Of a stretch of 26,095 nucleotides of DNA, positions 1-25,954 are shown in pieces. The stretch is from Myxococcota bacterium. GTDB lineage: Bacteria > Myxococcota > JACRCW01. Where the stretch lies: the NCBI GenBank assembly GCA_040752415.1, contig JBFMGU010000150.1, forward strand, positions 1-26,095. The letters run 5' to 3'. Below the pieces are notes generated by a model. That model made no database searches and was not told the DNA's origin. It saw only the letters and a list, made by a program, of their open reading frames with translations. The position numbers were made by a program, and so were the translations under genes. How positions within the stretch are numbered: the first letter of the stretch is position 1; each line of letters opens with the position of its first letter.

Positions 1-1487
1 AGCCGTTCGTCTGCGGGAGACGCGAACACGCCGCCCTCCGACGTGATCCCCGGGCCACACTGCGCCTCACCACCCGCGCCTCCCGGCGTGCCATGTCCAC
101 CACCGCCGCCGCCGCCGTTGCCGTAGGTGCCGCCTCCGCCGCCAAGCGTCTCCGCGGACGTCGACGGGACTGGCGCGGGCGGGTAGGTGGTGATGCCTTC
201 ACCTGGATTCTGCGGCTCACCGCAAGCCACGTTGGGCGAGCCACCCTGGCCACCGCGGAAGCCCGCGGCGTCGGCGTGGATGTCATGACCGTTGAGGTAA
301 ATGGACTCCGCCATCACGGCCACCACGCCGCCGCGCTCTCCGTCCCAGGCCTGGGCGGGCGTGATGTCGTCGTAGAGGGTGAGCGCGCCGTACTCCGGCA
401 CCGTGCAGAACTGGGCCCGCGCGCCCATGAAGAGCTGCGTCTCGGTGATGGGCTCGGTCACCTCCAGGCGGGACTCGGTGTTGACCAGCGTGCTGGAGAT
501 GACGCGCGTCACCCACCAACGTCCCACGCCGGCCATGTTCGTCTCGTTGAGCATGGCGGCGTTCTCATCGACCCCCAAGTCCGCCTGCATGATGATGACG
601 AGGATGCGGTCGCCGGCGTCGGGGGATTCCAGCCGGGTGTAGAGCTTTCCGTCGCTGGAGTTGTAGCGGATGGGGCCGCAGCGGTTGAACGGCATGCCGC
701 CGTACCAGTCCATGTTTCCGTCGCCAGCCAGACCGTCGCAGTCGGTGCTCATGGAGCAGACGGGGACGCTGAGGCACTCGTGGGGCATGCATTCGTTGGT
801 GGGAACACCGGAGCTGCTACCGCCGCTGCTGCTGCTGGTGATGAATCCCGACGACGAGGAGGAGCTGGTAATCCCCGGGCCACCCGTGGTGCTGGCAAAC
901 CCCGACGACGAACTGGAGCTGGAAACACCGGCCGTGGCATCCCCCCCGCCCGACGACGACGAGCTGCTGGCGCTGGAAACCCCGCCGGTGCTGGCCAGCC
1001 CGGATGACGACGATGAGCTGGAGACGCCCGCGGCGGACGACGTCGCTGCCGCGCTGGAAGAGGACGCCGCGGAGGAGCTGCTCGCGGTGGCGGACGACGA
1101 CGAGCCTGGCCCCGAGCTGGCGCCAAGGCTGGACGATGATGCGTTGCTTGCGCTGGAGGATGAGGCGGTGCCCCCGCTGGCGTTGCTGGAGCCGTTGGCG
1201 CTCGTGCTGCCGCCGGAAGACGCATTCCCCGACGAGCTTGTGCCACCGCTGGCGTTCACGTTGGCGCCGGAGGAGGATCGGGTGACGTCGTCAGGGCCGC
1301 CCGTGCTGGCGCGCGCCACGCCGGCGTCCCAGGTCACCAGCACGCAGCGGTTGGCCACGCAGTCGTAGTTGTCGACGGTGGAACAGTCGGACTTGTCGTT
1401 GCAGACCGCGCTGGTGTCCATCTCGGAGCAGGCCGAGAGGGCCAACCCACAGATGAGCCACCTGGAACGCCAACCCCGTCCCGCCAT
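1..1487 (-). CDS. Secreted lipoprotein (partial, runs off the left edge): Cys-rich N-terminus, long Ser/Gly linker, AgmC-N-like Gly-rich domain
   Basis: Absent from the ORF track because no stop lies in the window. Manual translation: ATG at 1487 with GGAGGG RBS; MAGRGWRSRWLICGLALSAC lipobox; CNDKSDC..YDCVANRC; poly-Ser linker; then AGDRILVIIMQ..AGVGRWW..AQFCTVPEY..AWDGERGGVVAV..AAGFRGG..GEG..NGGGGGGG. The frame is open to position 3. The AgmC resemblance is from recall. Confidence 0.85.
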   Translation of the reverse strand, partial: MAGRGWRSRWLICGLALSACSEMDTSAVCNDKSDCSTVDNYDCVANRCVLVTWDAGVARASTGGPDDVTRSSSGANVNASGGTSSSGNASSGGSTSANGSSNASGGTASSSSASNASSSSLGASSGPGSSSSATASSSSAASSSSAAATSSAAGVSSSSSSSGLASTGGVSSASSSSSSGGGDATAGVSSSSSSSGFASTTGGPGITSSSSSSGFITSSSSGGSSSGVPTNECMPHECLSVPVCSMSTDCDGLAGDGNMDWYGGMPFNRCGPIRYNSSDGKLYTRLESPDAGDRILVIIMQADLGVDENAAMLNETNMAGVGRWWVTRVISSTLVNTESRLEVTEPITETQLFMGARAQFCTVPEYGALTLYDDITPAQAWDGERGGVVAVMAESIYLNGHDIHADAAGFRGGQGGSPNVACGEPQNPGEGITTYPPAPVPSTSAETLGGGGGTYGNGGGGGGGHGTPGGAGGEAQCGPGITSEGGVFASPADER

Positions 1488-1575
1488 GATCACCCTCCGG
1501 CCTGGGCCGTGGCGTTGCATGGTGCCATTGCCGGGTGTTGCCCGCACCTGTCGCGCGGGTGGTATAGCCTCGTCC

Positions 1576-2688
1576 ATGGCAAGCATGCGTGGCCCGTGGT
1601 TCGGGATCGCCTCCCTGCTGCTGATGGGCGCGACGGCGTTGCCCGCGCAGGGGGCGGAGAAAGACAAGGACAAGGCGAAGGATGAAACCGTCTCGGTGGC
1701 GGTCTTCCCGTTGCGCGCCAAGCCCGGCGTAGAAGCGGTCACGGCGGAGCTGCTGACGCTCACCATCGTCGACGAGCTGCGCACGGTCTCCTCCTTTGCG
1801 CTGGTGATGTCTCCGCATGAGGTGGGGGTGCGGCTCAGTCCCAAGGAGCAGGAACAGCTCATGGACTGCGCCTCCGACCGGTGCGCCATGCTCGACACCG
1901 AGATGGCGGGCGCCCTTGGCGTTTCTCACATGCTGGTGGGCAGCATCTTCAAGGTGGACAAGGAATTGCTGCTGAACCTCAAGCTCCTGGACCTGCGCAC
2001 CGCGCTGGAGGTGGCCAGCGTTTCGCGTCGGATGGCGGGGAGCACCAACGCCATGCTGGCGTCGGCGAAGAGCCTGCTGGGGGAGCTGCTGAAGAAGTGC
2101 AAGTTCCTCAAGCCGCTGGGCAAGGAGTCCGCCACCGCCGCGCCCCCTCCGCCGCCACCGCCGCCGCCTCGTCGCGCACCGCAACCGGAGACCGTCACCA
2201 CCGCGGCGCCCGCTCCCGCGCCCGTCGAGGCGGAGGCCTCGCCCGCTCCCGTGACGACGTTGATGGCCGTTCCCGACCCGCCCACGCGCCCCGCACCCGA
2301 GGCCACCACACCCGCCCCCGCCGCCGCGGCCGCGCCTCCTCCGCGCGTGGTTCCGCTGTGGGCTCCCGGTGTCCTGGGTGGCGGCGTGACCGGCCTGGCC
2401 GTGGGCGTGTTGGGCCTGGTGGGGACGGCGGTGATGGGCACGTTGGCCACCATGTTGCTCGGCGTGGTGTACGTGGTGCCGGTGTTGAACCTGCTGCTCT
2501 TCCCCGACTCCAGCAGTCCCGACACGCGCCTGCCGCGCCTTGCGCATGGCAGTCAGGCGGAGCTGATGACGGCGGGTGCCGCGTGGGCGCTGGCTGCTGT
2601 TGGCGCGGTCCTGGTGCCCGTGGTGCTGGTGCTGATCGTCGGCGGCGCGGTGGCCACCAGTGCGGGTGGTGCGCTCAGCCGCGAGTGA
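1576..2688 (+). CDS. Secreted/membrane protein: TolB-N/CsgG-like alpha-beta domain, Pro-rich linker, C-terminal TM helices
   Basis: Signal peptide from ATG 1576 (or 1585); VAVFPL..C-x4-C..MAGALGVSHMLVGSIFKVDKELLLNLKLLD pattern; PPPPPPPP linker; hydrophobic C-terminus. The ORF-track start at 1369 overlaps the divergent gene and is rejected. Confidence 0.7.
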   Translation: MASMRGPWFGIASLLLMGATALPAQGAEKDKDKAKDETVSVAVFPLRAKPGVEAVTAELLTLTIVDELRTVSSFALVMSPHEVGVRLSPKEQEQLMDCASDRCAMLDTEMAGALGVSHMLVGSIFKVDKELLLNLKLLDLRTALEVASVSRRMAGSTNAMLASAKSLLGELLKKCKFLKPLGKESATAAPPPPPPPPPRRAPQPETVTTAAPAPAPVEAEASPAPVTTLMAVPDPPTRPAPEATTPAPAAAAAPPPRVVPLWAPGVLGGGVTGLAVGVLGLVGTAVMGTLATMLLGVVYVVPVLNLLLFPDSSSPDTRLPRLAHGSQAELMTAGAAWALAAVGAVLVPVVLVLIVGGAVATSAGGALSRE

Positions 2689-2696
2689 CGTCGGAA

Positions 2697-2730
2697 ACGG
2701 ACGGGCGGCGCGCGAGGTCCGCCCATCCGT
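2697..2730. terminator. Hairpin between convergent genes (putative terminator)
   Basis: ACGGACGGGCGG (2697-2708) and CCGCCCATCCGT (2719-2730) form a 12-bp stem with one G-U on the minus strand. No U-tract. Confidence 0.5.
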
Positions 2731-2742
2731 CACCACACGCGC

Positions 2743-4236
2743 TCAGTAGAGATTCCCGCTGCGCTTCTGGCCTGTGTAGTCCACGTAGACGGTGCGCCAC
2801 TCGCTGTAGAAGTCGATGGCGGTCTTCCCCATCTCACGTGCGCCCACGCCGGTGGCCTTGGTTCCGCCAAAGGGCAGGTGCGCCTCTCCGCCCACGGTGG
2901 GGTTGTTGACGTGGAGCATGCCGGTCTCCAGCCGGTCCACGTACTGCAACGCCCGCGCAACGTTGTTGGTGTAGAGGCTGGAGGTCAGGCCGTAGCGCAC
3001 GCCGTTGGCCACCTCGATGGCCTCGTCAAACGACTTCACGCGCAGGATGGAGAGCACCGGGCCAAAGACCTCCTCCTGGGCAATGCGCATGTTGGGCTTG
3101 ACGTGGTCGAACACGGTGGGCGCCACGAAGTAGCCCTTCTTGAGGTCTCCGTCGGTGACGCGGTCGCCGCCGCACACCAGGCGCGCGCCTTCCTCTTTGG
3201 CAATCTGGATGTAGCTGAGGTCCGTCTTGAACTGCCCCTCGTCGACGGCCGGGCCCATGCCGCTGCCATCCTTGAGCGGGTCGCCCACGGTGATCTTGCG
3301 GGTCAGCTCCGCCACGCGCTCCACGAACTTGTCCGCCACCGACTCCATCACGACGACACGACTCGTGGCCGTGCAGCGCTGACCGGTGGAGCCGAACGCG
3401 CCGCCCACGGTGCCCGCGGCGGCCAGCTCCAGGTCCGCGTCGTCCAGGACGATGACCGCGTTCTTGCCGCCCATCTCGCATTGCACCTTCTTGAGCAGCG
3501 GCGCGGCGTCGGAATACAGGCGCGTGCCCACCTCGTTGCTGCCGGTGAACGAGACCGCCACGATCTCCGGGTGCGTGACAATGCGCTGGCCCACCGTGCC
3601 GCCACCGCCCATCACCAGGTTCAGCACCCCCTTGGGCAGGCCGGCCTCATGGAAGATCTCGACGAGGATGCTGGCCGTCCACGGCGTCAGCGAGGCGGGC
3701 TTGAACACCACGGCGTTGCCGCACAGCAGCGCGGGGGCAATCTTCCAGACGGGGATGCACACCGGGAAGTTCCACGGCGTGACAATCCCCACCACGCCCA
3801 GCGGAGCGCGCACGGTGTACGTGAACGTGTTGGGCAGCTCCGAGGGCGCGGTCTCACCGTTGAGGCGGCGGCCTTCTCCGGCGGTGAACTCCAGCACGTT
3901 GATGGCCTTCTGCACCTCGCCACGCGCCTCTGCAATCAGCTTGCCTTCCTCCAGCGTGAGCGCGCGGGCCAGCTCCTCCTTGCGCGCCTCCATGACCCGC
4001 ATGGCGCGGAACAACAGCTCACCGCGCTTGGGGGCGGGCGTGGCGCGCCAGCCGGGCAGGGCGGCCTTGGCGGCTTCCACCGCGGCGTCCACGTCGGAGG
4101 CGTCACCCAGGGTGTACGTGCCCAGCACGTGCTCGGTGTTGGCGGGGTTGATGTTCTGACCGGTCTTGCCAGTGCGGCCGGCCACCCACTCACCGTGGAT
4201 GAAGTTGAGAAGGGGCTTGTGGGTTGTCTGCGTCAC
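2743..4236 (-). CDS. NAD(P)-dependent aldehyde dehydrogenase (alpha-ketoglutaric semialdehyde dehydrogenase-like)
   Basis: TPWNFP, FKPAS, FTGS, CEMGGKN, GQRCTA (catalytic Cys), EEVFGPV and PFGG motifs. GTG start at 4236 with GGAGG RBS; 497 aa. Confidence 0.93.
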   Translation of the reverse strand: MTQTTHKPLLNFIHGEWVAGRTGKTGQNINPANTEHVLGTYTLGDASDVDAAVEAAKAALPGWRATPAPKRGELLFRAMRVMEARKEELARALTLEEGKLIAEARGEVQKAINVLEFTAGEGRRLNGETAPSELPNTFTYTVRAPLGVVGIVTPWNFPVCIPVWKIAPALLCGNAVVFKPASLTPWTASILVEIFHEAGLPKGVLNLVMGGGGTVGQRIVTHPEIVAVSFTGSNEVGTRLYSDAAPLLKKVQCEMGGKNAVIVLDDADLELAAAGTVGGAFGSTGQRCTATSRVVVMESVADKFVERVAELTRKITVGDPLKDGSGMGPAVDEGQFKTDLSYIQIAKEEGARLVCGGDRVTDGDLKKGYFVAPTVFDHVKPNMRIAQEEVFGPVLSILRVKSFDEAIEVANGVRYGLTSSLYTNNVARALQYVDRLETGMLHVNNPTVGGEAHLPFGGTKATGVGAREMGKTAIDFYSEWRTVYVDYTGQKRSGNLY

Positions 4237-4332
4237 GGCGTCTGTCCTCCCGCGCGGCGGTGTGAAGGCCGCGTCAAGGAGGCCGGGCGTACCTGCGCGT
4301 GACGGACAGGTCAAACGCCCAACAGCGGATTC

Positions 4333-4917
4333 TCAGCGCCAGGTGGCGGGCTTGAAGCCCATGGCCTCGCCCAGCTGACGACCGAAGACGGTGGGCTCCG
4401 CGGGGCGGGGCACGCACCAGGTGACGCCGTTGGTGGTGAGCCATTGCGCCAGCTCCGGCGTGGCCTCACCAAAAGCCGCCACCGTCACGCCGCCACGCCC
4501 CGTGGCCTGCAACCACCGCACGATGTCTGGACCCATGGTGGGGCCCAGCAGCAGGTCCACCAGGACCACGTGCACGCGCTCACCAATCAGCACGCCCTCC
4601 GCCTCATGTGGCGACGAGAACGTGGTCACGAGCATGCCCGCGTCCCACAGGCCCATGGCCAGCGCGTCGCGCTGCGGACCCGCGGGCATCACCAGCACCG
4701 CGTGGAACTCCGTGTGGTTGTGCTCGAGCTTGTGGCTTACCTGCGTAGCCGCCACGCCAGGCGCAGACCACGTCGTCGCTTGGGGGAAACCGCTGTGGGC
4801 CAGACTCTCGAGATGGGTATTCATGATCGCGTCGCCTTGGCGCGGAACCGTTCCGCCTTGGGCGACCTCCGCGTTGTTCATCAACGGGCGGGAGGCCTGA
4901 ACGTTGTGCGTGGTCAT
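4333..4917 (-). CDS. Atypical (pseudo-)receiver domain protein with N-terminal extension
   Basis: ATG 4917 with AAGGAGG RBS. The C-terminal ~120 aa follow the CheY fold pattern (VHVVLVDLLLG), but the acidic pair, Thr/Ser and Lys are substituted. Confidence 0.7.
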   Translation of the reverse strand: MTTHNVQASRPLMNNAEVAQGGTVPRQGDAIMNTHLESLAHSGFPQATTWSAPGVAATQVSHKLEHNHTEFHAVLVMPAGPQRDALAMGLWDAGMLVTTFSSPHEAEGVLIGERVHVVLVDLLLGPTMGPDIVRWLQATGRGGVTVAAFGEATPELAQWLTTNGVTWCVPRPAEPTVFGRQLGEAMGFKPATWR

Positions 4918-4964
4918 GCGTGCCTCCTTTCCCGACGTGCCTCTCGGCTCGCGACCTCCCGCTG

Positions 4965-4980
4965 TGCAGCCGCCGGGCCA
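4965..4980 (-). promoter_or_regulatory. Putative sigma54 -24/-12 promoter
   Basis: Minus strand TGGCCCG-GCGG-CTGCA (GG-N10-GC), 47 nt upstream of ATG 4917. Confidence 0.45.
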
Positions 4981-5157
4981 GCGCCGAAAGCACGCGACGG
5001 GGGTCACACCGCGGTCCGCGCTCGGGATGCCGAAGTGGGTGTAAGTGGCGGATTTGTCATGGTTTTTGGCGGGTTTGCGGAAAGCACGGTGGGGATGGGG
5101 GTGCACGTGCGACCGCGCAGCTGCACGCGTGTGGATGCGGACATCCGTGTCAGACGG

Positions 5158-5175
5158 TGCGTCACCGGTGACGCA
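5158..5175. promoter_or_regulatory. Perfect 18-bp palindrome, candidate activator/enhancer site
   Basis: TGCGTCACCGGTGACGCA in a 400-bp intergenic region, about 180 bp upstream of the sigma54-like motif. Confidence 0.45.
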
Positions 5176-5316
5176 AAGCGGCAGCCGGATGAGCGCGACA
5201 CACCAACGCGCGAGATCCGAAACGCGTGCGAAACAATGTGCGTTGATCCGGTGACAGAGTGACGACGGCGACGACGCGGTCTGGGAGCCGCGTGCGCGCC
5301 GTGTTCGTGTTTCCAC

Positions 5317-5709
5317 TTAGCCGCGCGCGACGTGACGCCCGAGCACGGTGATGAGCCCGCTCAAGGTGGCCGGCGTGTGGAGCAACCCCGTGTCGCCGAA
5401 CTCACGGGCGTACTCGGCGAGGGTGGGGGACGCGCTCCACGCCACCACCGGTGTGTTCTCGTGCGCGCGCAGGGAGCGCAGGGCCGCCATGAATGGCCCG
5501 GTGCGCATTCCGGGCTTGCCCACGTCCACGACGATGACGTCGACGGTGTTGTTGGCCAGCTCCGGCACGGCGTCATCGAGCGTATTGACCACGCGCACGG
5601 TGTAGCCCGCCTCCTGCAAGGCGTCCCGGGTGATGTCCCGCAGATTCACGTCGTCCTCCACCAGCAGGACAACGCCTCTTGCCGCTTCCCTCACGCGACC
5701 CAGCCCCAC
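5317..5709 (-). CDS. Single-domain response regulator (CheY-like)
   Basis: VLLVEDD, DVIVVDVGKPG and PVVAWSA motifs; the conserved KP is replaced by TP. Start may be GTG 5694. Confidence 0.85.
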   Translation of the reverse strand: MGLGRVREAARGVVLLVEDDVNLRDITRDALQEAGYTVRVVNTLDDAVPELANNTVDVIVVDVGKPGMRTGPFMAALRSLRAHENTPVVAWSASPTLAEYAREFGDTGLLHTPATLSGLITVLGRHVARG

Positions 5710-5866
5710 GAGGTCTGCGCGGCACCCCCTTCCGCATCCCGCGGAGGCAGTCCGGCAACGCTCGACGGAGCGAGCATGCTCTCAACAGGCGCCCCCGATC
5801 AACCCTCGACGTGCGCGGGTCGGCGTGGTGTCAAATTGCCCCATGACCATGCCACCACGCGCCCCC

Positions 5867-7057
5867 ATGCGCGCCTCACGGGAACAGGTCCTGGCCTTCC
5901 GCCTCGACGGGCATCACCTTGCCCGGCGCCTCCCTCGTGGCTCGCTGCTGCAGACGGCAGGTGCGTGCGGGCTCCAGGATACGCCGCCCGGCTCCGCGCT
6001 GCTGGGAATGCACGCGCGCGTTTCCGGCCTGACCCCCGACGACGTCACGCGCGCCCTGGAGAACGCCAAGACGCTGTTTGCCACGTGGAGTCTTCGCGGT
6101 GCGCCGCACGTGATGCCCACGCGGGATGCCTCCGTCTTCACGCTGGGACTGCTTCCTGACGACGAGGAATCTCTGCGCGCCTTCCTGGGCGGCGGGGTGA
6201 TTCCGTTGGATGTCGTCGGGATGACTGCCGCGGAGCTCGTGGCGCGGACAGGGGAGGTGTCGCGCCAGGTGCTGGACGGGCGGGATGTGACCAAGGATGA
6301 GCTGGGCGTCGAGCTGTCCGAACGCATCGCCCGCGAGCTGAAGGGGAAGCAGCGGGCGCGCTGGCGCGCTCCGTCGATCGTTGTCCGCGGTCAGACGATG
6401 GGCGAGTCGCTGGTGCGGTTCGCGATCAGCGTGGTGGCATTGCAGGGCGTGGTGTGCGTGGGACCTCGTCGTGGGGGCGCGGTTCGTTATGCGCGCACGG
6501 ACCAGTGGCTGGGCAAGGCGTTGCCGAAGGCTCGTCGGGAAACGGCGGAAGCGGAGCTGGTGCGCCGGTATCTTGCCTGCTACGGGCCGTCGACGTCGGA
6601 GGAGCTGGCGCAGTGGGCGGGGATTGGGCTGGCCCAGGCGGAGCATGCGTGGAAGCGCGTGGCAAAGGAGCTCATTCCAGCCGACATCGACGGAAGGACC
6701 GCTTGGGTCCACCGTGGGGACCAGGCGCGGCTGGGCTCACCGAACGTGCCGCAAGGTGTCCGCTTCCTTCTCCCCCACGACCCGTTCCTGCAGCTGCGCG
6801 ACCGCACCACGCTCGCCCCGGAACGCGCGCTTCAGCGTCGGATCTGGCGCGCCATCGGGAATCCCGGCGTGGTGCTGGCCGAGGGGCGGTTGATGGGGCT
6901 GTGGCGTCCAGCGAAGAGCGGAAAACGACTGCGAATCTCCGTCGAGCTGGTAGCTCCCATGACCCGAGAGGTCCGCACGCACCTCGAGGTGGAAGCAGCG
7001 GCGTTGGCGCCGTGGCGGGGAGTCTCGACGGTGGAGGTCAAGGTGACGTCGGAGTAG
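5867..7057 (+). CDS. HTH_42 winged-helix DNA glycosylase family protein (AlkZ/YcaQ-like)
   Basis: FRLDGHHL..GLQDTPPGSALLGMHARV..TWSLRGAPH..LVRRYLACYGPST..LAQWAG..FLLPHDPFL..PGVVLAEGRLMGLWR. Alternative starts at 5843 and 5849. Confidence 0.85.
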   Translation: MRASREQVLAFRLDGHHLARRLPRGSLLQTAGACGLQDTPPGSALLGMHARVSGLTPDDVTRALENAKTLFATWSLRGAPHVMPTRDASVFTLGLLPDDEESLRAFLGGGVIPLDVVGMTAAELVARTGEVSRQVLDGRDVTKDELGVELSERIARELKGKQRARWRAPSIVVRGQTMGESLVRFAISVVALQGVVCVGPRRGGAVRYARTDQWLGKALPKARRETAEAELVRRYLACYGPSTSEELAQWAGIGLAQAEHAWKRVAKELIPADIDGRTAWVHRGDQARLGSPNVPQGVRFLLPHDPFLQLRDRTTLAPERALQRRIWRAIGNPGVVLAEGRLMGLWRPAKSGKRLRISVELVAPMTREVRTHLEVEAAALAPWRGVSTVEVKVTSE

Positions 7058-8085
7058 CCGGGGTGCGCAGCGCCTTCACCAGGACGTCTCGCATGCACTG
7101 GGCAAGCAGCTCGTGGCCCGGGTCGGAGAAGTGCCAGATGTCCGAGAACGTGGTGCGTGCCTCGCCGTTGAACGCGCGTGAACAATCCGCCACCGACGCC
7201 ACGTCCCTCGCCTCCAACTGCTGCAGCTCCCGACGCATGGCCTCGTAGCTGCCCGTCAGGCTCTCCAGCGACGGGTGCGCCTGCAGGTAGCCCGCGAGCA
7301 GCACGTGTTCCACCTCACTGAGCGGCGTCTTCTCGAACAACGCCGGTTGCAACACCGCCACCAGCTTCGCCCCGCGCTCCGACGTCATGCGGGCCATGCC
7401 TTGCATGTGCTCGGCGTAGAGGCGCACGCGCTCGTCGTAGTCGTGGGCGTGGTAGGTGACGGTCCAGGCGCGTCCGTCGTGGGTAGGCGTTTCCTCGCCG
7501 TACAGCGCGCGCGGTGGCGCCGTTGAGCACGTCATTGAGCCCGTTGAGCACCAGGACCACGTCGGGCTTCTCCACGTGCAGGAAGTGGCGCAGCGCTTCC
7601 TCCTCCTGGACGGATTTCCACGCGCCCGCCGCGAAGACGGTGATGTCGACGGGGACGCCATCCTGCGCCGCGAGCTGGGCGAGTCGATGGAAGTACGTGC
7701 GGTCCGCGCGGGAGGCGTTGGCGCCGGTGGCCACGCTGCCTCCCAGGATCACCACCCGACGAGCATCCCGGGGGCCCGGCACGCGCTGGAGCCCGCGCTC
7801 ATCCACGTCGACGAGGGGAGGATGGTGGACCTCCGCCATGTGCCAGCCAAAGCGTGAGTGTTTGGTGTGCGGAGGCAGTCGCGCGCCCCAGTAGCCCTCG
7901 CGCGGGCCGTCGGGTGGCACGTCGAGGTTGCGCTCCAGGAAGCTGGCCTCCCACGCGCGCACGTTCAGGCCCTTGCCTTGCTGACGCCACAACCTCCGGC
8001 CCACCCAGCCCGCGCCGCCAACGACGGTCGCCGTCATCAACAGCGTCAGGGCCCAGAAGGCCGCGGGTTTCCATCGCTTCGACAT
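7038..8085 (-). pseudogene. SGNH/GDSL hydrolase family membrane-anchored protein split by a frameshift at ~7505-7513
   Basis: The 5' frame (ATG 8085) has a TM anchor, ILGGSVA (block I) and NGLND (block III). The 3' frame has LQP and DIWH (block V). Total length is 1048 nt; adding one GC unit restores a 349-aa ORF. Confidence 0.8.
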
Positions 8086-8182
8086 GGGGCAAGGTGTCCG
8101 ACGCCGTCGGTTAGCACGGAGAAGTCGGCTGCCGCTGCTCCAGGCAAGCCTCGCGCTCCCACCGCGCTCGCTCCGGAACAAT

Positions 8183-8215
8183 TTGACACTCAGTCCCAAA
8201 TGGGACTAAGTGTCA
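8183..8215 (+). promoter_or_regulatory. TetR-type operator inverted repeat overlapping a TTGACA -35
   Basis: TGACACTCAGTCCCA-AA-TGGGACTAAGTGTCA (14/15 arm match); TTGACA at 8183-8188; directly upstream of the ICMT-tetR pair. Confidence 0.8.
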
Positions 8216-8234
8216 TTTTTGGAGCGTGAAGGTC

Positions 8235-8930
8235 ATGGCAGCAGATTCAAGCCGCGCCAACGTGGTCCGCGGCGTTCTCCGTGCTTGCGCTGCGGGGGCG
8301 GTGTTCGCGTTGGTGCTCGTCGGGACGGCGGGGACGGCCGGGTGGTGGCAGGCGTGGGCGTTTGTCGCGGCCTCGACGGTCGCCGTGGCGGCGCTCCACG
8401 TGCTCGTCTTTGATGCCAACCCCGACCTGGTACGTGAGCGCGCCACGGCGGGGGCGTTGGCGCCGGCGTGGGATCGCCACCTGGTGCGGGGGATGAATCT
8501 CTCGCTGCCACTCATGCTGGCGCTGGCGGGGTTGGACCATCGCTCGGGGTGGACTCCGGCGTGGGGCATGGCACCGTCGCTTGCGGCGCTGGTCTGCCTC
8601 GTCGTGGGCAACGCCATCACGCTGCAGGCCATGCGGGCGAATGCCTTCTTCTCCAGCCACGTGCGCATCCAGCGGGACCGCAACCATGTCCCCGTCGGAA
8701 ACGGGCCGTACGCGTGCGTTCGCCACCCGGGTTACGCCGGGGCGGTGCTCTACAACCTCGCCGCGGCCGTGCTGTTGGGTTCCGTCCCGGCGCTCGTCGT
8801 GGCTGGGGTGTTCGTGGTGCTTGTCGTCATCAGGACGGCGCTGGAGGACGCCACGTTGACGCGGGAGCTGCCCGGATACGCGGAGTATGCGCGTCGGGTC
8901 AGGAGCCGCCTGGTGCCGCTGCTGTGGTGA
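8235..8930 (+). CDS. Isoprenylcysteine carboxyl methyltransferase (ICMT/PEMT) family membrane protein
   Basis: Multiple TM helices; ANAFFSSHVRIQ..GPYACVRHPGYAG..RTALED..L..ELPGYAEY..VRSRLVP; GGAG RBS at 8221-8224. Confidence 0.88.
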   Translation: MAADSSRANVVRGVLRACAAGAVFALVLVGTAGTAGWWQAWAFVAASTVAVAALHVLVFDANPDLVRERATAGALAPAWDRHLVRGMNLSLPLMLALAGLDHRSGWTPAWGMAPSLAALVCLVVGNAITLQAMRANAFFSSHVRIQRDRNHVPVGNGPYACVRHPGYAGAVLYNLAAAVLLGSVPALVVAGVFVVLVVIRTALEDATLTRELPGYAEYARRVRSRLVPLLW

Positions 8931-9541
8931 AACCCCTCGACGCCGCAGCGCCGGGCCGGAGGGCGCGGAAGAAGGAGATGGCCCGCGCGGCGATCCAGCA
9001 GCACGCCATGCGCCTGTTCCTCAAGCGCGGTTACGCCGCTGTCACCGCCGACGAGATCGCGGATGCGGCGAACGTCTCCCGCTCCACGTTCTTCCGCTAC
9101 TTCCCGACGAAGGACGACGTGGTGGTGCGCGACGCGTTCGACGAGCTGTTCCTGGATGCGGTGAAGGCCCAGCCCGCGGACCTCTCGCCGGCGGAAGCGG
9201 TGCGGCGCACGTTGCACCAGTTCATGGACTCGTTGACGCCGGAAATCCTGGAGATGGAACGACGTCGCCTGGCGCTCATCCTGGCCACGCCGGAGCTGCG
9301 CCAGCGGATGCTGGGCATGTATCCCGACACACTGCGAAGAATCACTGCCATGCTTGCCGCACGTTCTCGTCGGGGGAACGCGCAGGAGCTCCGTCTCCAG
9401 GCAGGTGCGTTGCTCGGCGTTGGCCTCGCGGCGTTGGTGGGAGCCCAGGACGAGGACGCGGACTACTTCGCGCTGTTCGAGGAGGGGCTGGCCCGGCTGG
9501 ATGCGTCGGAGGGAAGGTCGCGGAAGAAGCGGCAGCATTGA
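8927..9541 (+). CDS. TetR/AcrR family transcriptional regulator
   Basis: GTG start overlaps the upstream stop (GTGA); GRRARKK..AMRLFLKRGY..VTADEIADAANVSRSTFFRYFPTKDDV HTH. Confidence 0.92.
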   Translation: MKPLDAAAPGRRARKKEMARAAIQQHAMRLFLKRGYAAVTADEIADAANVSRSTFFRYFPTKDDVVVRDAFDELFLDAVKAQPADLSPAEAVRRTLHQFMDSLTPEILEMERRRLALILATPELRQRMLGMYPDTLRRITAMLAARSRRGNAQELRLQAGALLGVGLAALVGAQDEDADYFALFEEGLARLDASEGRSRKKRQH

Positions 9542-9644
9542 GCCGGGTTCCGTCACCAGCGCGCGAAACATCGAAGCTCCCAGGGGTTCCGAGGTGGGAT
9601 CGCGCGCAGCCCCTCACCGTGACGTTCCTGGGAAAGGCGCGCGT

Positions 9645-9673
9645 TTGACAACAAATAAGCATCGGCTTATTCA
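9645..9673 (+). promoter_or_regulatory. Sigma70-type promoter with ArsR-type operator palindrome
   Basis: TTGACA at 9645-9650; AATAAGC-ATCG-GCTTATT at 9654-9671; weak -10 (TATTCA) at 17-bp spacing. Confidence 0.7.
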
Positions 9674-9679
9674 TTGCGC

Positions 9680-10009
9680 ATGCAGAGCGGGGCCGCGGCG
9701 GAAAACAAGATCTTCCAGGCGCTGGCCGATCCCAGCCGCCGGGCGATCTTCAAGTCCCTCATGCGGGGCGAAGCGGCGGTGAAGGACCTCACGGCGCGCT
9801 TCGACATCTCGCAGCCGGCCGTCTCGCAGCACCTTGCCACCCTGAAAGACGCCGGACTGGTGAACGGACGGCGCGAGGGGCGCTGCGTGTACTACCGGGT
9901 GGAGCCGCGCGGGATGAAGCCGCTCATCGACTGGGTCTCGCACTACCGCGCCTTCTGGACGGAGCACGTCGATCGGCTTGAACAGCTTCTGGAGAAGATG
10001 GACGAGTGA
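9680..10009 (+). CDS. ArsR/SmtB family transcriptional regulator
   Basis: IFQALADPSRRAI..ISQPAVSQHLATLKDAGLV..RREGR..YY..FW; 109 aa. Confidence 0.92.
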   Translation: MQSGAAAENKIFQALADPSRRAIFKSLMRGEAAVKDLTARFDISQPAVSQHLATLKDAGLVNGRREGRCVYYRVEPRGMKPLIDWVSHYRAFWTEHVDRLEQLLEKMDE

Positions 10010-10078
10010 CTACCGTCGACGTGACCGCGCGCTCGCGGCTTCAATGTTTTCACCACCCTTGATGACAGGAACGCAAAC

Positions 10079-12505
<2,427 letters not shown>

Positions 12506-12656
12506 GTGACTCAACCTTCCTCGACTACCGGTGCGGGCTCCGCACGCTTCGAACCCGTCGACAGCTCCTTGCCGACGACGGACGCGGACGGGTGTGGTCT
12601 GGAGCAGCTACCGTTCGCTGACGTGGTCGCGGAAAGAGCTGGCCTCAACGCAGGAG

Positions 12657-12682
12657 AAAAGAGTGTCCCCAGCGGGATTCGA
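12657..12682 (-). repeat. Duplicated 3' end of tRNA-Glu (att-like direct repeat)
   Basis: AAAAGAGTGTCCCCAGCGGGATTCGA is identical (26/26) to 13433-13458. Confidence 0.92.
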
Positions 12683-12793
12683 GGCCCGGTTGACGTCGTC
12701 ACCGAGGAAGACACTTTCGGTGTGAGCATGTCAGCAAGCTGGAAAGCGTTGACCCCTTGGGCTTCCTACCGTTCTAGGGCTTAGACTCGCCGC

Positions 12794-13351
12794 ATGGGAC
12801 TCTTGACCTTCAGCATCAACGTCACCCTGGACGGCTGCGTCGACCACCGGGAGGGAATCGCCGACGACGAGACACACGCTTTCTTCACCCGCGTCATGGA
12901 CGAGGGCGGGGCGATGCTGTGGGGCCGCGTCACCTACGAGATGATGGAGAGCTACTGGCCGGCGGTCGCCCGCGGCGACGAGGAGGCGCCGCCGGCGATA
13001 CGCGAGTGGGCGGTCAAGCTGGAGGCCAAGCCGAAGTACGTGGTGTCGTCGACGCGAAAGGACTTCCCGTGGACCAACAGCCACCACATCGGCGGCGACC
13101 TGCGCGCAGGCGTGCAGAAGCTCAAGGACGCGACCCCGGCCGGCGTGCTCCTCGGTAGCGGCAAGCTCGCGACCGAGCTGGACCGGCTGGACCTGATCGA
13201 CGAGTACAAGTTCCTCGTCCACCCCAGGATCGCCGGCCACGGCCCGACCCTGTACCAGAGCGGGCTGCCCAGCACGCGACGGCTCGAGCTGGTCTCGGCG
13301 AAGCCGCTCCGCAACGGCGCGGTCGCCGTGCACTACCGGCGCGCGCGCTGA
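12794..13351 (+). CDS. Dihydrofolate reductase-like (RibD C-terminal domain) family protein
   Basis: NVTLDGC..MLWGRVTYEMM..PKYVVSST..GSGKLA..LIDEYKFLVHPRIAGHGPTL. TAGACT lies 6 nt before the ATG and there is no RBS. Confidence 0.9.
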   Translation: MGLLTFSINVTLDGCVDHREGIADDETHAFFTRVMDEGGAMLWGRVTYEMMESYWPAVARGDEEAPPAIREWAVKLEAKPKYVVSSTRKDFPWTNSHHIGGDLRAGVQKLKDATPAGVLLGSGKLATELDRLDLIDEYKFLVHPRIAGHGPTLYQSGLPSTRRLELVSAKPLRNGAVAVHYRRAR

Positions 13352-13439
13352 CTCAGAAGCAGCCCCATCGCGCCCAGCTCGTCGCTTGCGTCTGCTTCCA
13401 TGGTCACGCAACTCGCGGACTTCAGCGGTGGAAAAAGAG

Positions 13440-13512
13440 TGTCCCCAGCGGGATTCGAACCCGCGTTTCAGCCTTGAAAGGGCCGCATCCTGGGCCTCTA
13501 GATGATGGGGAC
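13440..13512 (-). tRNA. tRNA-Glu: tRNA-Glu (anticodon TTC), CCA not encoded
   Basis: GTCCCCA/TGGGGAC acceptor stem; CGGCC-CTTTCAA-GGCTG anticodon arm; GCGGG-TTCGAAT-CCCGC T arm. Confidence 0.97.
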
Positions 13513-13535
13513 GTAGAGGGGGTCCGGTGGTTGGT

Positions 13536-13608
13536 TGAGCCGACCGGGGATCGAACCCGGGACCCACGGATTAAAAGTCCGTTGCTCTGCCAGCTGAGCT
13601 ATCGGCCC
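13536..13608 (-). tRNA. tRNA-Lys: tRNA-Lys (anticodon TTT)
   Basis: GGGCCGA/TCGGCTC acceptor stem; GCTC..GAGC D arm; ACGGA-CTTTTAA-TCCGT anticodon arm; CCGGG-TTCGATC-CCCGG T arm. Confidence 0.97.
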
Positions 13609-13663
13609 GTGGTTTGCGGACCCCTCGTTGCGACGGCCGGTCCAGTCCGGCAGTGCTGCCCCT

Positions 13664-13691
13664 AATGTCCCGACGCCCCCGCCGGTGTCAA
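13664..13691 (-). promoter_or_regulatory. Putative sigma70 promoter for the tRNA-Lys/Glu pair
   Basis: Minus strand TTGACA-N16-GACATT upstream of tRNA-Lys. Confidence 0.4.
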
Positions 13692-13825
13692 TCCCCAACC
13701 GCGCAAACCTTGTCGGTCGCGGTCCGGGCCCACCCTCCGCCCAAGGCGCGTTGACGTGTGCGCAAGCCTCGGTTACCTGCGCCGCACACCGGCGCACACC
13801 GCGCCCAGTAGCCCAGGTTCAAGCC

Positions 13826-15001
13826 ATGCAAGACGCTGTCATCCTCTCCGCCGTTCGCACCCCCATTGGCTCCTTCCAAGGCGCCCTCAGCGCGCTCAAG
13901 GCCCCGCAGCTCGGCTCCGCGGCAATCAAGGCCGCCCTCGAGCGCGCCGGCGTGACCGCCGACCAGATTGAAGAGGTCTACATGGGTGAGGTGCTGACCG
14001 CGGGCGTGGGCCAGGCCCCCGCGCGGCAGGCCTCCCTGGGCGCAGGCATCCCCAACACCATCCCCTGCACCACGCTCAACAAGGTGTGCGGCTCCGGCCT
14101 CAAGGCCGTGATGCTGGCGGCCCAGACCATCCGCGCCGGCGACGCCCACGTGCTGGTGGCCGGTGGCCAGGAGTCCATGAGCAACGCGCCGTACCTGCTG
14201 CCCACCGCCCGCAACGGCATGCGCATGGGCAACCAGCAGGTGGTGGACTCCATGATCTTCGACGGGCTGTGGGATCCCTACAAGGACACGCACATGGGCA
14301 ACTGCGGTGACCTGTGCGCGCGCGAGAAGGACTTCTCCCGTGAGGCGCAGGATGCGTTCGCCGCGGAGAGCTACCGTCGGGCGCAGGCCGCCACCAAGAA
14401 CGGCAAGTTCAAGGCGGAGATCGTCCCCGTCACCATCGCCGGCAAGAAGGGTGACACCATCGTCGACAGCGACGAGGAGCCCAGCAAGGTCGACTTCGAG
14501 AAGATGAAGACCCTGAAGGCCGCCTTTGGCAAGGATGGCACGGTCACCGCCGCCAACGCGTCCAAGATCAATGACGGGGCCAGCGCGGTCGTCGTCACCA
14601 GCAAGGAGTGGGCGGAGAAGAACGGCAAGAAGCCGCTGGCCCGCATTGTGGCCTACGCGAGCGCCGCCGGCGCGCCGGAGTGGTTCACCACCGCGCCCAT
14701 TCCCGCCATGCAGAACGCGCTCAAGAAGGCCAACCTGTCCGTCAAGGACATTGACCTGTGGGAGATCAACGAGGCGTTCTCCGTCGTCACCATGATTGCC
14801 ATGCGGGAGATGGGCCTGGATCACAACAAGGTCAACGTGAACGGCGGCGCCGTGGCGCTGGGCCACCCCATTGGCGCCAGCGGCGCGCGCATCCTCTCCA
14901 CGCTGGTCCACGCGCTGCATGACCGCGGGCTGCGTCGCGGCATGGCCTCCCTGTGCATTGGTGGCGGTGAGGCGGTGGCGGTGGTGGTGGAGCGCGTCTG
15001 A
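13826..15001 (+). CDS. atoB: Acetyl-CoA C-acetyltransferase (thiolase)
   Basis: [20 protein letters not shown] (catalytic Cys), [27 protein letters not shown]; 391 aa. Confidence 0.95.
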
Positions 15002-15654
15002 TGCGCGGCTCCCGGGTGATGTTCCTGGTGGCGGCAGCGCTGTTGGTCTGGGCGTGCGAGGACAACACGCCCACCTACAGCCTCCGGATCCGTCTGGATG
15101 GGAAGGACGGGGGCGGCCTCATGTCCGCCGAGGGCGAAGGTGTGGAGGTCAGTGACACCGACGAGACCAGCGGCGTGTTCCCCCGCGCCAAGAGCAGCCT
15201 CAAGAACTTCCCCTGCGACGTCTCCATCCGCCTGGGCCAGTGCGTGGCCGCCCGTCCCATCCAGCTGGTGTTCGTGCCCGCGTCGCAGTCGCAGAGCGGG
15301 ACCACGAATTGTCGTCGCAGCGCGGAGGAGCTGATGAAGGACGCGCTGGGGCAGGAGATCGTCCTTGGCCGCGGAGATGCCGGCACCGTGTGGCTGCAGG
15401 CCTTCCACGGCGACGACGACGACGACAGCCAGCTGGTGGAGCGCCGCGAGATGAACGCCTACGCGGAGCTCAAGTCCGGCACGGTGGTGCTGGAGACGTT
15501 TGATGCGGACCTGATGAAGGCGCGCATCGACGCACATGACGCCGACGGTGGCAGCTTTGTCGTCGGGGAGCTGGTGGCCGTCCCCAATGACAACGGCAGC
15601 AACCCCGGCGTGGGCCCCCGCTGCACCTGGCCCATTGGCGCCAAGGCGGACTGA
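15001..15654 (+). CDS. Hypothetical lipoprotein
   Basis: [19 protein letters not shown] lipobox; TGATG coupling to the thiolase stop; fills the gap to hbd with GC3-rich codons. Confidence 0.75.
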
Positions 15655-15723
15655 TCTTCCCACGCTGCGCGCCGTCCCGAGGTGCGCGGCGTCTTCGTTT
15701 CCCCGGAAACCACGGAGCAACAC

Positions 15724-16575
15724 ATGTCGACGATCAACACGGTGGGCGTCATTGGCGCCGGTCAGATGGGCAATGGCATTGCGCAGGTGTGCGCGCAGGC
15801 AGGCGTGAGCGTGATCTGCTCGGACATCTCGCAGGCGGCCCTGGACAAGGGAAGGAGCACCGTGGAGCAGAGCCTGGGGCGCCTGGTGAAGAAGGAGAAG
15901 CTCACGCAGGCGCAGGCGGACAAGGCACTCAGCCTCATCACCTTCACCACCGACCTGGGGAAGCACGCGGGTGCCGACTTCGTCGTCGAGGCTGCCACCG
16001 AGAACGAGGGGCTCAAGAAGAACATCTTCAAGGAGGTGGACAAGGCGGCGAAGCCGGGCGTGATCCTGGCGTCCAACACGTCGTCGATCTCCATCACGCG
16101 GCTGGCCGCGGTGACCTCGCGCCCGGAGAAGTTCATCGGGATGCACTTCATGAACCCGGTGCCGGTGATGCAGCTGGTGGAGCTCATCCGCGGCCTGGCC
16201 ACCAGCGACGAGACCTACGCCGCCACCAAGGCGCTGGCCGAGAAGGTGGGCAAGGTCACCACGGTGAGCAAGGACTTCCCCGGCTTCATGGCCAACCGCG
16301 TGCTGATGCCGATGATCAACGAGGCGTTCTGCGCGGCGGAGCAGGGCGTGGGAACGTTCGAGGACATTGACCAGACCATGAAGCTGGGCGCCAACCACCC
16401 CATGGGCCCGTTCGCTCTGGCAGACCTCATTGGCCTGGACACGTGCCTGGCCATCATGGAGGTCCTGCACACGCAGTTTGGCGACTCCAAGTACCGTCCC
16501 TCGACGCTGCTGCGCCAGTACGTGGACGCCGGTTGGCTGGGCCGCAAGACCGGGCGCGGGGTGTACAGGTACTGA
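15724..16575 (+). CDS. hbd: 3-hydroxybutyryl-CoA dehydrogenase
   Basis: [68 protein letters not shown]. Confidence 0.95.
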
Positions 16576-23150: not shown

Positions 23151-23302
23151 CGCGCCAGGACGTCCCGCGCCTGGTCATCCGACGCTGCTGGCCGCCATGG
23201 GGGACCCTGCGCACCCGTCTGCGCGGTCTCCGGGGATTCCCTGGGCGTGATCCGGGACTCGAGCGTTTCAGCGGAGTGGGGTTGCACAAAAGTCGGGGCG
23301 GA

Positions 23303-23329
23303 TGTCGATCCGGAACGGCCCCGGTCGAC
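23303..23329 (+). promoter_or_regulatory. ECF42-type promoter, copy 3
   Basis: TGTCGA-N17-CGAC, 59 nt upstream of ATG 23389. Confidence 0.7.
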
Positions 23330-23388
23330 GATGTTCCAGAGCGGGCAGACGGGCCTGCTCGAACCGAGGGATTCAAGGAGATCCGCCC

Positions 23389-25903: not shown

Positions 25904-25954
25904 GGGAAATTGCAGCCCGCGGCACCTGGGCCGGCCTGGGGCGGAAGAAGAGAG

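Follow-up and report, generated by a model that had tools for sequence, protein, structure and literature searches.

How did a single gene come to lie between two identical copies of a tRNA 3′ end, with no integrase gene beside it? The question is posed by the tRNA-Glu(TTC) gene in a 26,095-nucleotide window (the whole stretch of DNA that we analyzed) from a metagenome-assembled Myxococcota genome. An initial annotation had read the locus as a possible serial accretion of integron-like cassettes. We consider it probable that the tRNA gene holds a tandem array of two decayed integrative elements of an Mx8-IntP-like integrase family. The site itself comprises the following parts.

12657..12682, minus strand: displaced att core copy, an exact repeat running from the tRNA-Glu(TTC) T-loop through the acceptor 3′ end and 7 nt further
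12683..12777, no strand: spacer of 95 nt from this core copy to the RibD_C module
12778..13379, plus strand: RibD_C (DHFR-fold reductase family) gene module, with a 185-aa ORF at 12794-13351
13433..13458, minus strand: att core that overlaps the intact tRNA-Glu gene and runs slightly past it (attL)
13439..13512, minus strand: intact tRNA-Glu(TTC), the integration target (ARAGORN; Rfam tRNA, 59.6 bits)
13536..13608, minus strand: tRNA-Lys(TTT), start of the conserved chromosome (ARAGORN; Rfam)

The 26-bp direct repeat (12657-12682 = 13433-13458, same strand) is exact and runs from the T-loop of tRNA-Glu(TTC) to 7 nt past the discriminator, and its coordinates and extent agree with the initial annotation. 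It lengthens to 35 nt at 89% identity; past the displaced copy, similarity to the tRNA drops to 5/9 across 12683-12691 and vanishes beyond. With up to three mismatches allowed, the core occurs exactly twice in the 11.0-Mb, 520-contig assembly, and allowing six adds a single tRNA-like stretch at 25948-25973, which is unrelated and lies to the wrong side of the tRNA-Glu gene. Apart from that stretch, the sites on contigs C33 and C50 described below and chance-level matches, no third att copy was found in the assembly at up to 6 mismatches in 26 or 4 in 20. The islet between the two identical cores measures 776 bp and has the RibD_C gene as its sole gene; on the chromosomal side, tRNA-Lys(TTT) is followed by thiolase and 3-hydroxyacyl-CoA dehydrogenase genes. 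The locus thus shows the intact tRNA gene and the directly oriented, displaced 3′ fragment of a tRNA island, but not the integrase gene within the island. No integrase was detected by Pfam in the window (50 scanned of 134 ORFs of at least 80 aa), and tblastn of 78 family integrases against it matched nothing more than the arm discussed below (a 38-residue tail) and the tRNA itself, with no integrase remnant beyond ∼53 nt at either arm. The islet is therefore integrase-free, as had been annotated.

The gene between the repeats had been called DHFR-like, which agrees with the match of ORF 12794-13351(+) to Pfam RibD_C (E 1.7e-13). Its module is 88-91% identical to a copy in another genome (G030:C36) over 12778-12834 and 13007-13356, where the context is different. 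Soil/root metagenome contigs match it at ∼98% identity, with divergent sequence beyond 12778/12793 and 13379. All copies elsewhere (in genomes G030 and G035 and in contigs of four metagenome runs) have the gene in common and carry neither att nor arms, the shared stretch being 12778-13356/13379 only. The cargo is tightly bounded, since the module ends at 13379 and the adjoining arm starts by 13383. The gene had also been credited with its own promoter, a claim that found no support: a sigma-70 consensus scan of 12400-13700 gave 0 sites, hence none in the 12683-12777 spacer, with a consensus that may not suit this phylum. One terminator-like site, no more than chance expectation, corresponds to the displaced tRNA T-arm and its T-run. 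The 95-nt spacer may represent the P-side arm of element 1, the younger element; compared with the P side of the C33/C50 island it scored no better than shuffles (450-1414 of 2000 equal or exceed it), and the spacers at 12506-12604, 12683-12777 and 13352-13382 gave chance-level 14- to 21-mers at most in a genome-wide search.

The similarity between the two junctions continues past the tRNA, as had been noted from a manual alignment, and it is these flanking arms that bear on the origin of the array.

12605..12656, plus strand: arm 2, predicted diverged remnant of an integrase gene 3′ end, P′ arm of the presumed older element; it abuts the displaced tRNA fragment
13380..13432, plus strand: arm 1, predicted remnant of the 3′ end of an Mx8-IntP-like integrase gene, P′ arm of the presumed younger element

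When the 52 nt left of each core were aligned with the core as anchor, 31 of 51 columns were identical with a 1-nt offset (score 29), a divergence of ∼40% next to cores that are identical over 26 bp. Dinucleotide shuffles scored 17.7 ± 2.0, and neither these (0/2000) nor random genomic 52-mers (0/2000) reached 29; an unanchored local alignment of the arms by themselves was not significant (1793/5000 shuffles reach its score). Anchored in the same way, arm 2 resembled arm 1, the 3′ end of the C33 integrase gene and an arm at the tRNA-Glu(TTC) gene of G001, the only other genome of the same family, with 0/2000, 0/2000 and 1/2000 shuffles reaching the respective scores. Leave-one-out nhmmer recovered arm 1 with an E value of 4.3e-9; arm 2 was recovered at 12606-12655 in the correct register, at 9.0 bits, with a genome-wide E value of 22 and ranked 7th. 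By itself arm 2 is thus weak, and its assignment as a putative integrase remnant leans on its prespecified position and register. As a search for dispersed repeats, the nhmmer arm profile found just the three copies in this genome from which it was built, and together with the core scan it gave no further copy of the arm-plus-att unit beyond the window. Among 401 genomes of the phylum the arm pattern was restricted to one family (f1), and 2 further matches share nothing else by eye. In this genome the arm stands next to tRNA-Glu genes of either isoacceptor, and in G001 next to tRNA-Glu(TTC). An RNA element at the arm was also considered and rejected: at the gathering threshold Rfam reported two tRNAs only in the window, and no covarying helix was seen by eye in the four arms.

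The nature of the arm became apparent from a reference island at tRNA-Glu(CTC) (C33:3399-3472) in the same genome. A C33 ORF of 498 aa with tyrosine-integrase domains (1941-3437) passes through a homologous arm and stops inside this tRNA gene. Three Pfam integrase domains match the ORF, two under their gathering scores, and it has 77 homologues with E values down to 9e-126, several of which are named integrase by their sources. Among phage proteins it is closest to Mx8 IntP/Int (E 9e-70), with 41% identity along residues 8-384, a span covering 76% of the query. Directly upstream lies an ORF that scores above the cut-off of the excisionase family TIGR01764. The C33 integrase has a catalytic Tyr motif and carries Tyr in place of the box II His that 61 of 78 family members have; 8 of the 78 show this Tyr. 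The protein has no paralogue in its own genome by tblastn and none in G001 (92% complete). Against genome contigs it matched two loci at 42% and 51% identity, one without a tRNA and with its match ending within 3 nt of the contig end, the other at tRNA-Asp. The far end of the island lies at C50:9407-9426, where 20 nt are identical to the tRNA-Glu(CTC) 3′ end and are followed by a hairpin and T9 terminator with no arm. Since the displaced native flank on C50 lacks the arm, it is the element that brings the arm, not the tRNA. Between the C33 and TTC cores, 4 of 20 positions differ.

The correspondence extends to the protein level. Residues 459-496 of the C33 integrase matched 13355-13468 by tblastn with 45% identity (E 2.7e-5), and in frame MVTQLADFSGG in arm 1 corresponds to MVTQLVDLTGA in the C33 protein; the integrase-frame reading of arm 1 ends ...SMVTQLADFSGGKRVSPAGFEPAFQP before its stop, the C33 integrase ends ...DMVTQLVDLTGATQMIPAGIEPAFAT before its own, and the replacements are conservative. 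An att core inside the integrase reading frame is found for the C33 ORF at tRNA-Glu(CTC), for a homologue (locus L051) whose ORF stops inside tRNA-Asp at the DNA level, and in many homologue tails, whose C termini are translated tRNA genes (for example, ...TPAGFEPAFMP and ...GGRDLNPRPPA). One homologue ends ...PAGFEASERL, an attP-type junction, and the distal copy in the window reads likewise (FEARL). Because the C33 integrase ORF reads through the arm and the native flank on C50 is armless, we take the arms to be, from their sequence, the predicted 3′ end of an integrase gene, that is, the P′ side of attP, and not a tRNA trailer. Arms without an integrase gene number three (two in the window and one in G001), with ∼50 nt kept in each, which is a little odd for random deletions. 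We also observed that the linker upstream of the tail in the C33 integrase is of low complexity, so it would not be recognizable in remnants.

The DNA on the far side of arm 2 is consistent with an earlier insertion.

1..12604, no strand: DNA distal to the array, presumed older island(s) (Pfam and NCBIfam; no G001 synteny)
9674-10009, within 1..12604: ArsR
10079-12505, within 1..12604: UvrA paralogue (uvrA2)

The remaining genes of this stretch encode an aldehyde dehydrogenase, a response regulator, an AlkZ-like glycosylase, a GDSL lipase, an ICMT-like methyltransferase and TetR. Positions 13390-16570 are syntenic with contig C29 of G001 at 73-83%, and this synteny breaks off at the tRNA and arm; between 1-12700 and G001 there was no synteny, just paralogue-level matches of 67-77%. 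The arsR-uvrA2 segment (9645-12439) is 86% identical to contig C26 of G035, a genome of another family. The suggestion that the uvrA2-arsR side is an earlier related insert was supported by the homology of arm 2 to the C33 integrase 3′ end, by the armless C50 flank and by the lack of synteny with G001, and we infer that the entire 12.6 kb on the left is part of the older island. A core scan of the fragmented assembly did not find this island's far end or the native flank of the TTC site.

Taken together, these data suggest the following history. In the source family, an Mx8-IntP-like tyrosine integrase gene would read across its own attP core, the last ∼50 nt of int adjoining a 26-bp core that mimics the tRNA from T-loop to 3′ end, so that upon integration the int tail would come to rest against the regenerated tRNA. 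An older element may have integrated in this way, leaving arm 2 (12605-12656) and perhaps the uvrA2-arsR side. A second, related element would then have entered the regenerated tRNA and pushed the first core copy outward, producing an attP-like internal junction of arm 2, core and element 1; 12657-12682, which stands between arm 2 and element-1 DNA, reads as such a junction. Finally, the int body would have been lost from both elements by deletion or replacement, and the younger one reduced to its RibD_C cargo between two att-proximal ends, a 776-bp islet of the CIME (cis-mobilizable element) type. We infer this probable order of events, and int loss by deletion, from the arrangement of the sequence; an integrase tail without its body is what would mark the islet as a deletion remnant.

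One alternative is that the arm is a native functional trailer of the family's tRNA-Glu genes, such as a processing or termination signal, and that the distal copy arose when the tRNA 3′ half and its trailer were duplicated as one segment. The family-restricted occurrence of the arm beside tRNA-Glu genes of both isoacceptors here and in G001 would suit a trailer, but the native flank of tRNA-Glu(CTC) on C50 has its own strong terminator in place of an arm, the C33 arm lies inside an integrase ORF with changes that are conservative in the protein, a duplication would not leave 26 identical bases between flanks of ∼60% identity, and Rfam finds nothing at the arm; we therefore regard this reading as very improbable. 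Equally improbable is a false join of the assembly at the 26-bp repeat or the tRNA, by which the array would exist in no single cell. The source genome is a 520-contig bin with 4.3% estimated contamination in which most tRNA species occur twice, and the internal junction rests on this assembly, as no public contig spans 12474-12741. Against an artifact, both junctions have arm and core arranged as expected of real att sites, the two arms being different, the GC content of the region is even, and usual assembly word sizes exceed 26 bp. Of the 24 public runs listed, 21 contain some of the window (∼0.14-0.21 of its words, in no case half or more) and the remaining 3 next to nothing of it; contigs from four runs over 11000-15000 cover the uvrA-like and RibD_C genes and leave 12474-12741 uncovered. 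The 14 joints listed fall in the uvrA-like gene (9, at 11199-12304), in RibD_C (1, at 12843-12923) and in the thiolase region (4, at 13954-14742). None of the joints listed is at an att site or skips 12683-13458; no contig covers that junction, and the joints have no bearing on excision either way.

The decayed-array reading has its most serious competitor in the view that the islet is a working minimal mobile unit, a single-gene circle moved in trans by an Mx8-IntP-like integrase. Here the 26-bp core, the ∼53-nt int-tail arm and the 95-nt P side would make up a sufficient attP, the enzyme being the C33 integrase or one not assembled, which amounts to a CIME mobilized in trans or in cis. Att ends that are identical next to arms diverged by ∼40% imply a core that was kept or recently formed; the cargo is closely delimited by att-proximal segments (13379/13383), the integrase-less arms recur three times, and the genome itself encodes both an excisionase and an integrase with a homologous arm. 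These points are offset by the RibD_C copies elsewhere (G030, G035 and the four metagenome runs), which share the gene only, by the absence of the att-plus-arm unit from the rest of the genome, by the 4/20 mismatch of the C33 core together with the lack of a C33 integrase paralogue in the assembly, and by two metagenome scans without relatives: the arm-plus-core pattern gave 0 matches, and a 20-mer of the attP-type junction gave 2, both inside an ORF without tRNA or arm and discarded as chance. An arm that consists of part of an ORF speaks for an origin by decay. We accordingly rate a working unit as unlikely, although the islet might be mobilizable in trans. Still less likely is a general form of this idea, in which core and ∼53-nt arm are a portable attP and trans-acting Mx8-type integrases stack single-gene units at tRNA-Glu as an analogue of an integron array, the three integrase-less arms then being products of stacking and not of independent decay. 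The serial accretion initially proposed thus holds as to the tandem, related insert, its arm being element-derived, but not as to integron-like cassettes, since the arms are truncated int ORF ends; a cassette system finds no support in the bare RibD_C copies, nor in the scans of the genome, public contigs and metagenomes, which gave no circle, no empty site and no att-plus-arm unit outside this locus, and the homologous full-length island on C33 points to a deletion remnant.

If two decayed elements lie at this tRNA-Glu, integrase families that cross attP, as in Mx8, would leave the int tail at the tRNA after decay as a scar of each past integration, which would offer a simple way to recognize tandem integrase-less island remnants. 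Standard island finders, which require an integrase and at least 2 kb, discard such remnants, and these stay uncatalogued. The locus would also mark tRNA-Glu as a hotspot of gene gain in a poorly sampled myxobacterial family. Were remnants of this kind mobilizable in trans, they would give myxobacterial work a compact, naturally occurring means of site-specific gene delivery.

Among known systems, the integron cassette, an attC-bounded single gene that IntI captures at attI, shares with the islet a single gene of ∼0.8 kb between recombination sites, in series with another insert. Unlike an integron, the locus shows no IntI and no attI, its sites read as tRNA-mimic cores with an integrase-tail arm rather than as imperfect-palindrome attC sites, and the same gene elsewhere lacks them; the resemblance is one of layout only. 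A second comparison is with the module of myxophage Mx8, in which intP/int carries attP inside its coding sequence, the excisionase gene uoi lies upstream and attB is in tRNA-Asp genes. The C33 integrase is 41% identical to that of Mx8, has an excisionase-family gene upstream and is encoded by an ORF that crosses the core and ends in a tRNA, and the arms in the window are homologous to the last codons of that ORF. In contrast to Mx8, the target is tRNA-Glu (TTC, CTC) instead of tRNA-Asp, and the integrase body is gone in the window. The core here lies ∼12 codons from the stop, and integration changes a few residues; in Mx8, integration reportedly changes a large C-terminal segment of Int. The placement of Mx8 attP within int, and the resulting alteration of the int 3′ end upon integration, are set out in the sections on attP of PMC6070905.

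With the islands defined by Islander, the locus shares the intact tRNA, the directly oriented, displaced 3′ fragment and a crossover sublocation from T-loop to 3′ end. As far as the Islander rules given in PMC4383910 go, integrases extending across attP are allowed and tandem arrays are recorded, but an integrase gene and a length of at least 2 kb are required, so that the islet, with no integrase gene and less than 2 kb, would fail these filters. With the CIMEs and tandem ICE/IME-type islands of Streptococcus (ICESt1/ICESt3 and the tRNA-Lys islands of S. agalactiae) the points of agreement are these: attL and attR are kept, here as identical 26-bp cores, integration genes are lost, and the remnant stands in tandem with a related element at a tRNA 3′ end, with the RibD_C gene as its only content and arm 1 as a truncated integrase 3′ end. 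Unlike in those arrays, int is missing from both members, the remnant, at 776 bp and one gene, is unusually small, and the elements belong to a phage-type (Mx8-like) family that shows no sign of conjugation genes. In the three-step model outlined in PMC5704250, integration, decay and entry of a second element into an att site give rise to CIMEs and to accretion, and the order of arm, core, islet, arm, core and tRNA fits the model as outlined there. The locus fits this known, CIME-like pattern of accretion followed by decay.

The tRNA-Glu(TTC) gene shares with the DNA beyond its 3′ end a 26-bp exact direct repeat (12657-12682 = 13433-13458; 35 nt at 89% identity when extended), which in tRNA terms extends from the T-loop, across the acceptor 3′ strand, to a point 7 nt beyond the discriminator. 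With up to 3 mismatches allowed, the 11.0-Mb assembly contains exactly two copies of this att core, both on contig C58, which the window covers end to end. As the initial annotation described, the two copies, 776 bp apart from start to start, bracket one credible, DHFR-like gene with a RibD_C domain:

12794-13351, plus strand, gene for a RibD_C-domain (DHFR-fold) protein (185 aa; Pfam E = 1.7e-13)
13439-13512, minus strand, tRNA-Glu(TTC)
13536-13608, minus strand, tRNA-Lys(TTT)

The islet was also rightly described as integrase-free: Pfam detected no integrase among the window ORFs (50 scanned of 134 of at least 80 aa), and tblastn, run with 78 members of the relevant integrase family, returned only one of the core-flanking arms described below and the tRNA read in another frame. 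The promoter attributed to the RibD_C gene was not confirmed, as a sigma-70 consensus scan of 12400-13700, with a consensus that may not suit the phylum, was empty. The sole terminator-like site in that interval is the displaced tRNA T-arm with its TCTTTT tail (12667-12684, minus strand), which could terminate transcription from the RibD_C side; such sites are no more numerous there than in shuffles. At 25948-25973 (on to ~26010), some 120 nt short of the contig end, 21 of 26 positions match the core, and the minus strand has a hairpin resembling a T-arm and a 3′ end resembling that of an acceptor. The site was called as a tRNA by neither ARAGORN nor Rfam and may represent a tRNA pseudogene or a further displaced fragment.

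We compared the 52-nt segments to the left of the two core copies, with the alignment anchored at the core. Arm 1 (13380-13432, next to the tRNA) and arm 2 (12605-12656, distal) share 31 identities over 51 columns with a 1-nt offset; their score of 29 was reached by none of 2000 dinucleotide shuffles (17.7 ± 2.0) and by none of 2000 random genomic 52-mers. In unanchored local alignment, however, 1793 of 5000 shuffles reached the observed score, which is not significant. The arm similarity reported at both junctions is thus real but modest and dependent on register; arm 2 is weak outside the anchored test (9 bits in leave-one-out nhmmer, E = 22 genome-wide). The same arm was found in the 3′ flanks of tRNA-Glu(TTC) in G001, the sole other genome of the family, and of tRNA-Glu(CTC) on C33, another contig of the same assembly. 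In all six pairwise anchored comparisons of the four arms, 0 or 1 of 2000 shuffles reached the observed score, and the C33 arm is the nearest relative of arm 1. An arm profile search found no further copies in the own genome. Among 401 genomes from the phylum, four contain the arm motif GGTCRCG joined to the tRNA-Glu core: the own genome has 3 such sites and G001 has 1, while in the other two nothing else resembles the arm by eye.

The C33 arm lies inside a 498-aa ORF (1941-3437) that ends within tRNA-Glu(CTC) (3399-3472). Its product scored just over the gathering score for Phage_int_SAM_3 and below those for Phage_int_M and Phage_integrase, and has 77 database homologues (identity up to 58%, E down to 9e-126), several source-named "integrase"; the best phage match is Mx8 Int/IntP (41% identity, residues 8-384, E = 9e-70). 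The tyrosine integrase that the initial annotation had suggested seeking elsewhere has a candidate in this Mx8-IntP-like ORF, which reads through the homologous arm. Directly upstream, ORF 1493-1969 matches excisionase family TIGR01764, over the cut-off. The C-terminus of C33 Int reads ...RLQPADMVTQLVDLTGATQMIPAGIEPAFAT*, and arm 1 in the same frame reads ...SLASASMVTQLADFSGGKRVSPAGFEPAFQP*; a small tblastn search aligned Int residues 459-496 with window 13355-13468 (45% identity, E = 2.7e-5). The replacements V/A, L/F, T/S, and A/G are conservative, as expected for formerly protein-coding sequence, and we infer that the window elements have lost int. Many of the homologues carry, ~20 codons ahead of their tRNA-derived residues, a tandem 4-residue repeat (LATTLATT, YSPSYSP, LLPPLLPP, LATRLATR, and LATLATLAL were seen), corresponding to 12-nt direct repeats in DNA; these may be arm-type binding sites for the integrase, contained within its own ORF.

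In a search for core-like strings, 20 nt identical to the tRNA-Glu(CTC) 3′ end turned up at 9407-9426 of contig C50 of the same genome. Here the C33 island has its distal junction, with sequence unrelated to the tRNA on the inner side and, on the outer side, a strong hairpin and T9 terminator without the arm. One native tRNA-Glu flank in this organism therefore lacks the arm; the arm comes in with the element and forms the P′ side of attP, next to int. On the plus strand, the order within a single island is native flank - core - P side ... cargo ... xis - int - arm - core - tRNA. C33:1493-3472 and C50:9407-9426 delimit an apparently full-length Mx8-IntP-like island of at least 12.8 kb across a contig gap, with an excisionase-like gene, the 498-aa integrase, and a displaced piece of the tRNA, 20 bp long. 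The assembly, a fragmented bin, has 85 tRNA genes, most tRNA species being present twice, and its 11 Mb may include DNA of a second organism. A tRNA-Glu pair at C471:46477-46625 differs strongly from the window and C33 genes; the TTC gene of the pair continues into an encoded CCA.

In the window, the order is ...uvrA2 - 100 nt - arm 2 - core - 95 nt - RibD_C - 28 nt - arm 1 - core - tRNA-Glu(TTC). Where arm 2, the core, and the younger RibD_C element meet, the structure is that of an attP, as a tandem array of two related elements produces; the DNA left of the displaced fragment was thus correctly taken for an earlier related insert. The arms differ by ~40% while the cores are identical, which excludes simple duplication as the origin of the second copy and argues for two separate integrations. 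The 95-nt spacer has no recognizable relatives, and neither the outer end of the older element nor the native TTC flank was found in the assembly. The best reading is integration, decay, and reintegration at tRNA-Glu(TTC) by Mx8-IntP-like elements: one would have integrated and decayed to an integrase-less, att-flanked remnant, and a second would then have entered the regenerated site.

The flanking DNA fits this reading. On the tRNA side, to the right, gene order in 13390-16570 (tRNAs, thiolase, an ORF, and 3-hydroxyacyl-CoA dehydrogenase) follows that of G001:C29, with 73-83% identity; to the left, window 1-12700 gives scattered paralogue-level matches only, G001 being the one other genome in this same-family comparison. 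In G001 the arm is followed by another gene, weakly phosphotransferase-like, and the contig ends 1.1 kb on; no C33 Int homologue was found in this 92% complete genome. A locus in G035, from another family, shares 86% identity with the arsR-uvrA2 pair (9645-12439). Genes for an AlkZ-like DNA glycosylase, TetR, ArsR, and a UvrA paralogue (808 aa, below the NCBIfam cut-off for true UvrA) lie close together at 5630-12505. Genes of these kinds have often been associated with self-protection against DNA-damaging natural products.

The RibD_C module is sharply bounded, and the att sites lie outside its limits. In G030, from another family, a copy in unrelated context without a tRNA (C36; 8703-9101 of locus L040) matches window 12778-12834 and 13007-13356 at 88-91% identity and lacks the ~170 bp between; G035:C46 matches 12793-13308 at 75%. 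Of 24 public runs listed, 21 contain about a fifth of the sampled words of the stretch (0.14-0.21), 3 contain almost none, and no run reaches one half. Contigs from four of these runs match 12778-13379 at ~98% identity (one of 706 nt has 11 differences) and cease to match at 12778/12793 on one side and at 13379, the start of arm 1, on the other. Of the 14 joints listed in run contigs, 9 fall in the uvrA-like gene, 1 in the RibD_C gene, 4 in the thiolase region, and none at att sites, while 12474-12741, across the internal junction, had zero coverage. Copies thus occur elsewhere without att sites, so that the unit moving between genomes is the gene and not an att-bounded unit, and the sequences suggest recent horizontal spread of RibD_C alone. 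The ~98% matches come from soil and root metagenomes of several studies. A second, longer RibD_C-domain gene (23302-23976, 224 aa, Pfam E = 2.8e-22) adjoins ECF sigma factor and MerC/HMA-domain ORFs.

The initial annotation had proposed integron-like serial capture of minimal cassettes at tRNA-Glu, and what speaks for it is limited to the intact cores, the tightly bounded cargo, and the threefold recurrence of int-less arms. However, each arm is a fragment of an integrase ORF, and a full-length island of the family, the kind of homologue named beforehand as pointing to a deletion remnant, lies at tRNA-Glu(CTC) in the same genome. Nor was the att-arm unit found around RibD_C or any other gene elsewhere in the own genome, G030, or the public-run contigs (two metagenome scans were uninformative). 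Cassette capture is therefore not supported; the three favorable features are compatible with a trans-mobilizable remnant or a fossil, and none distinguishes the two.

The sequence of integration, decay, and reintegration is a known one. The array corresponds to the accretion and CIME model, for which PMC5704250 describes integration, decay, and a second integration; here, the remnant and second element belong to an Mx8-IntP-like family. For Mx8, reviews place attP inside the coding sequence of int, which acquires a new 3′ end upon integration (PMC6070905), and the Islander paper lists Mx8's among integrases that extend across attP (PMC4383910). The C33 family likewise reads across att into tRNA: many homologues terminate in translated tRNA genes (e.g., ...TPAGFEPAFMP and ...GGRDLNPRPPA), and at one locus (L051) the int ORF stops within a tRNA-Asp gene. 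The two are also parallel in the gene beside int, which is an excisionase-like ORF in C33 and is annotated as uoi in the Mx8 record.
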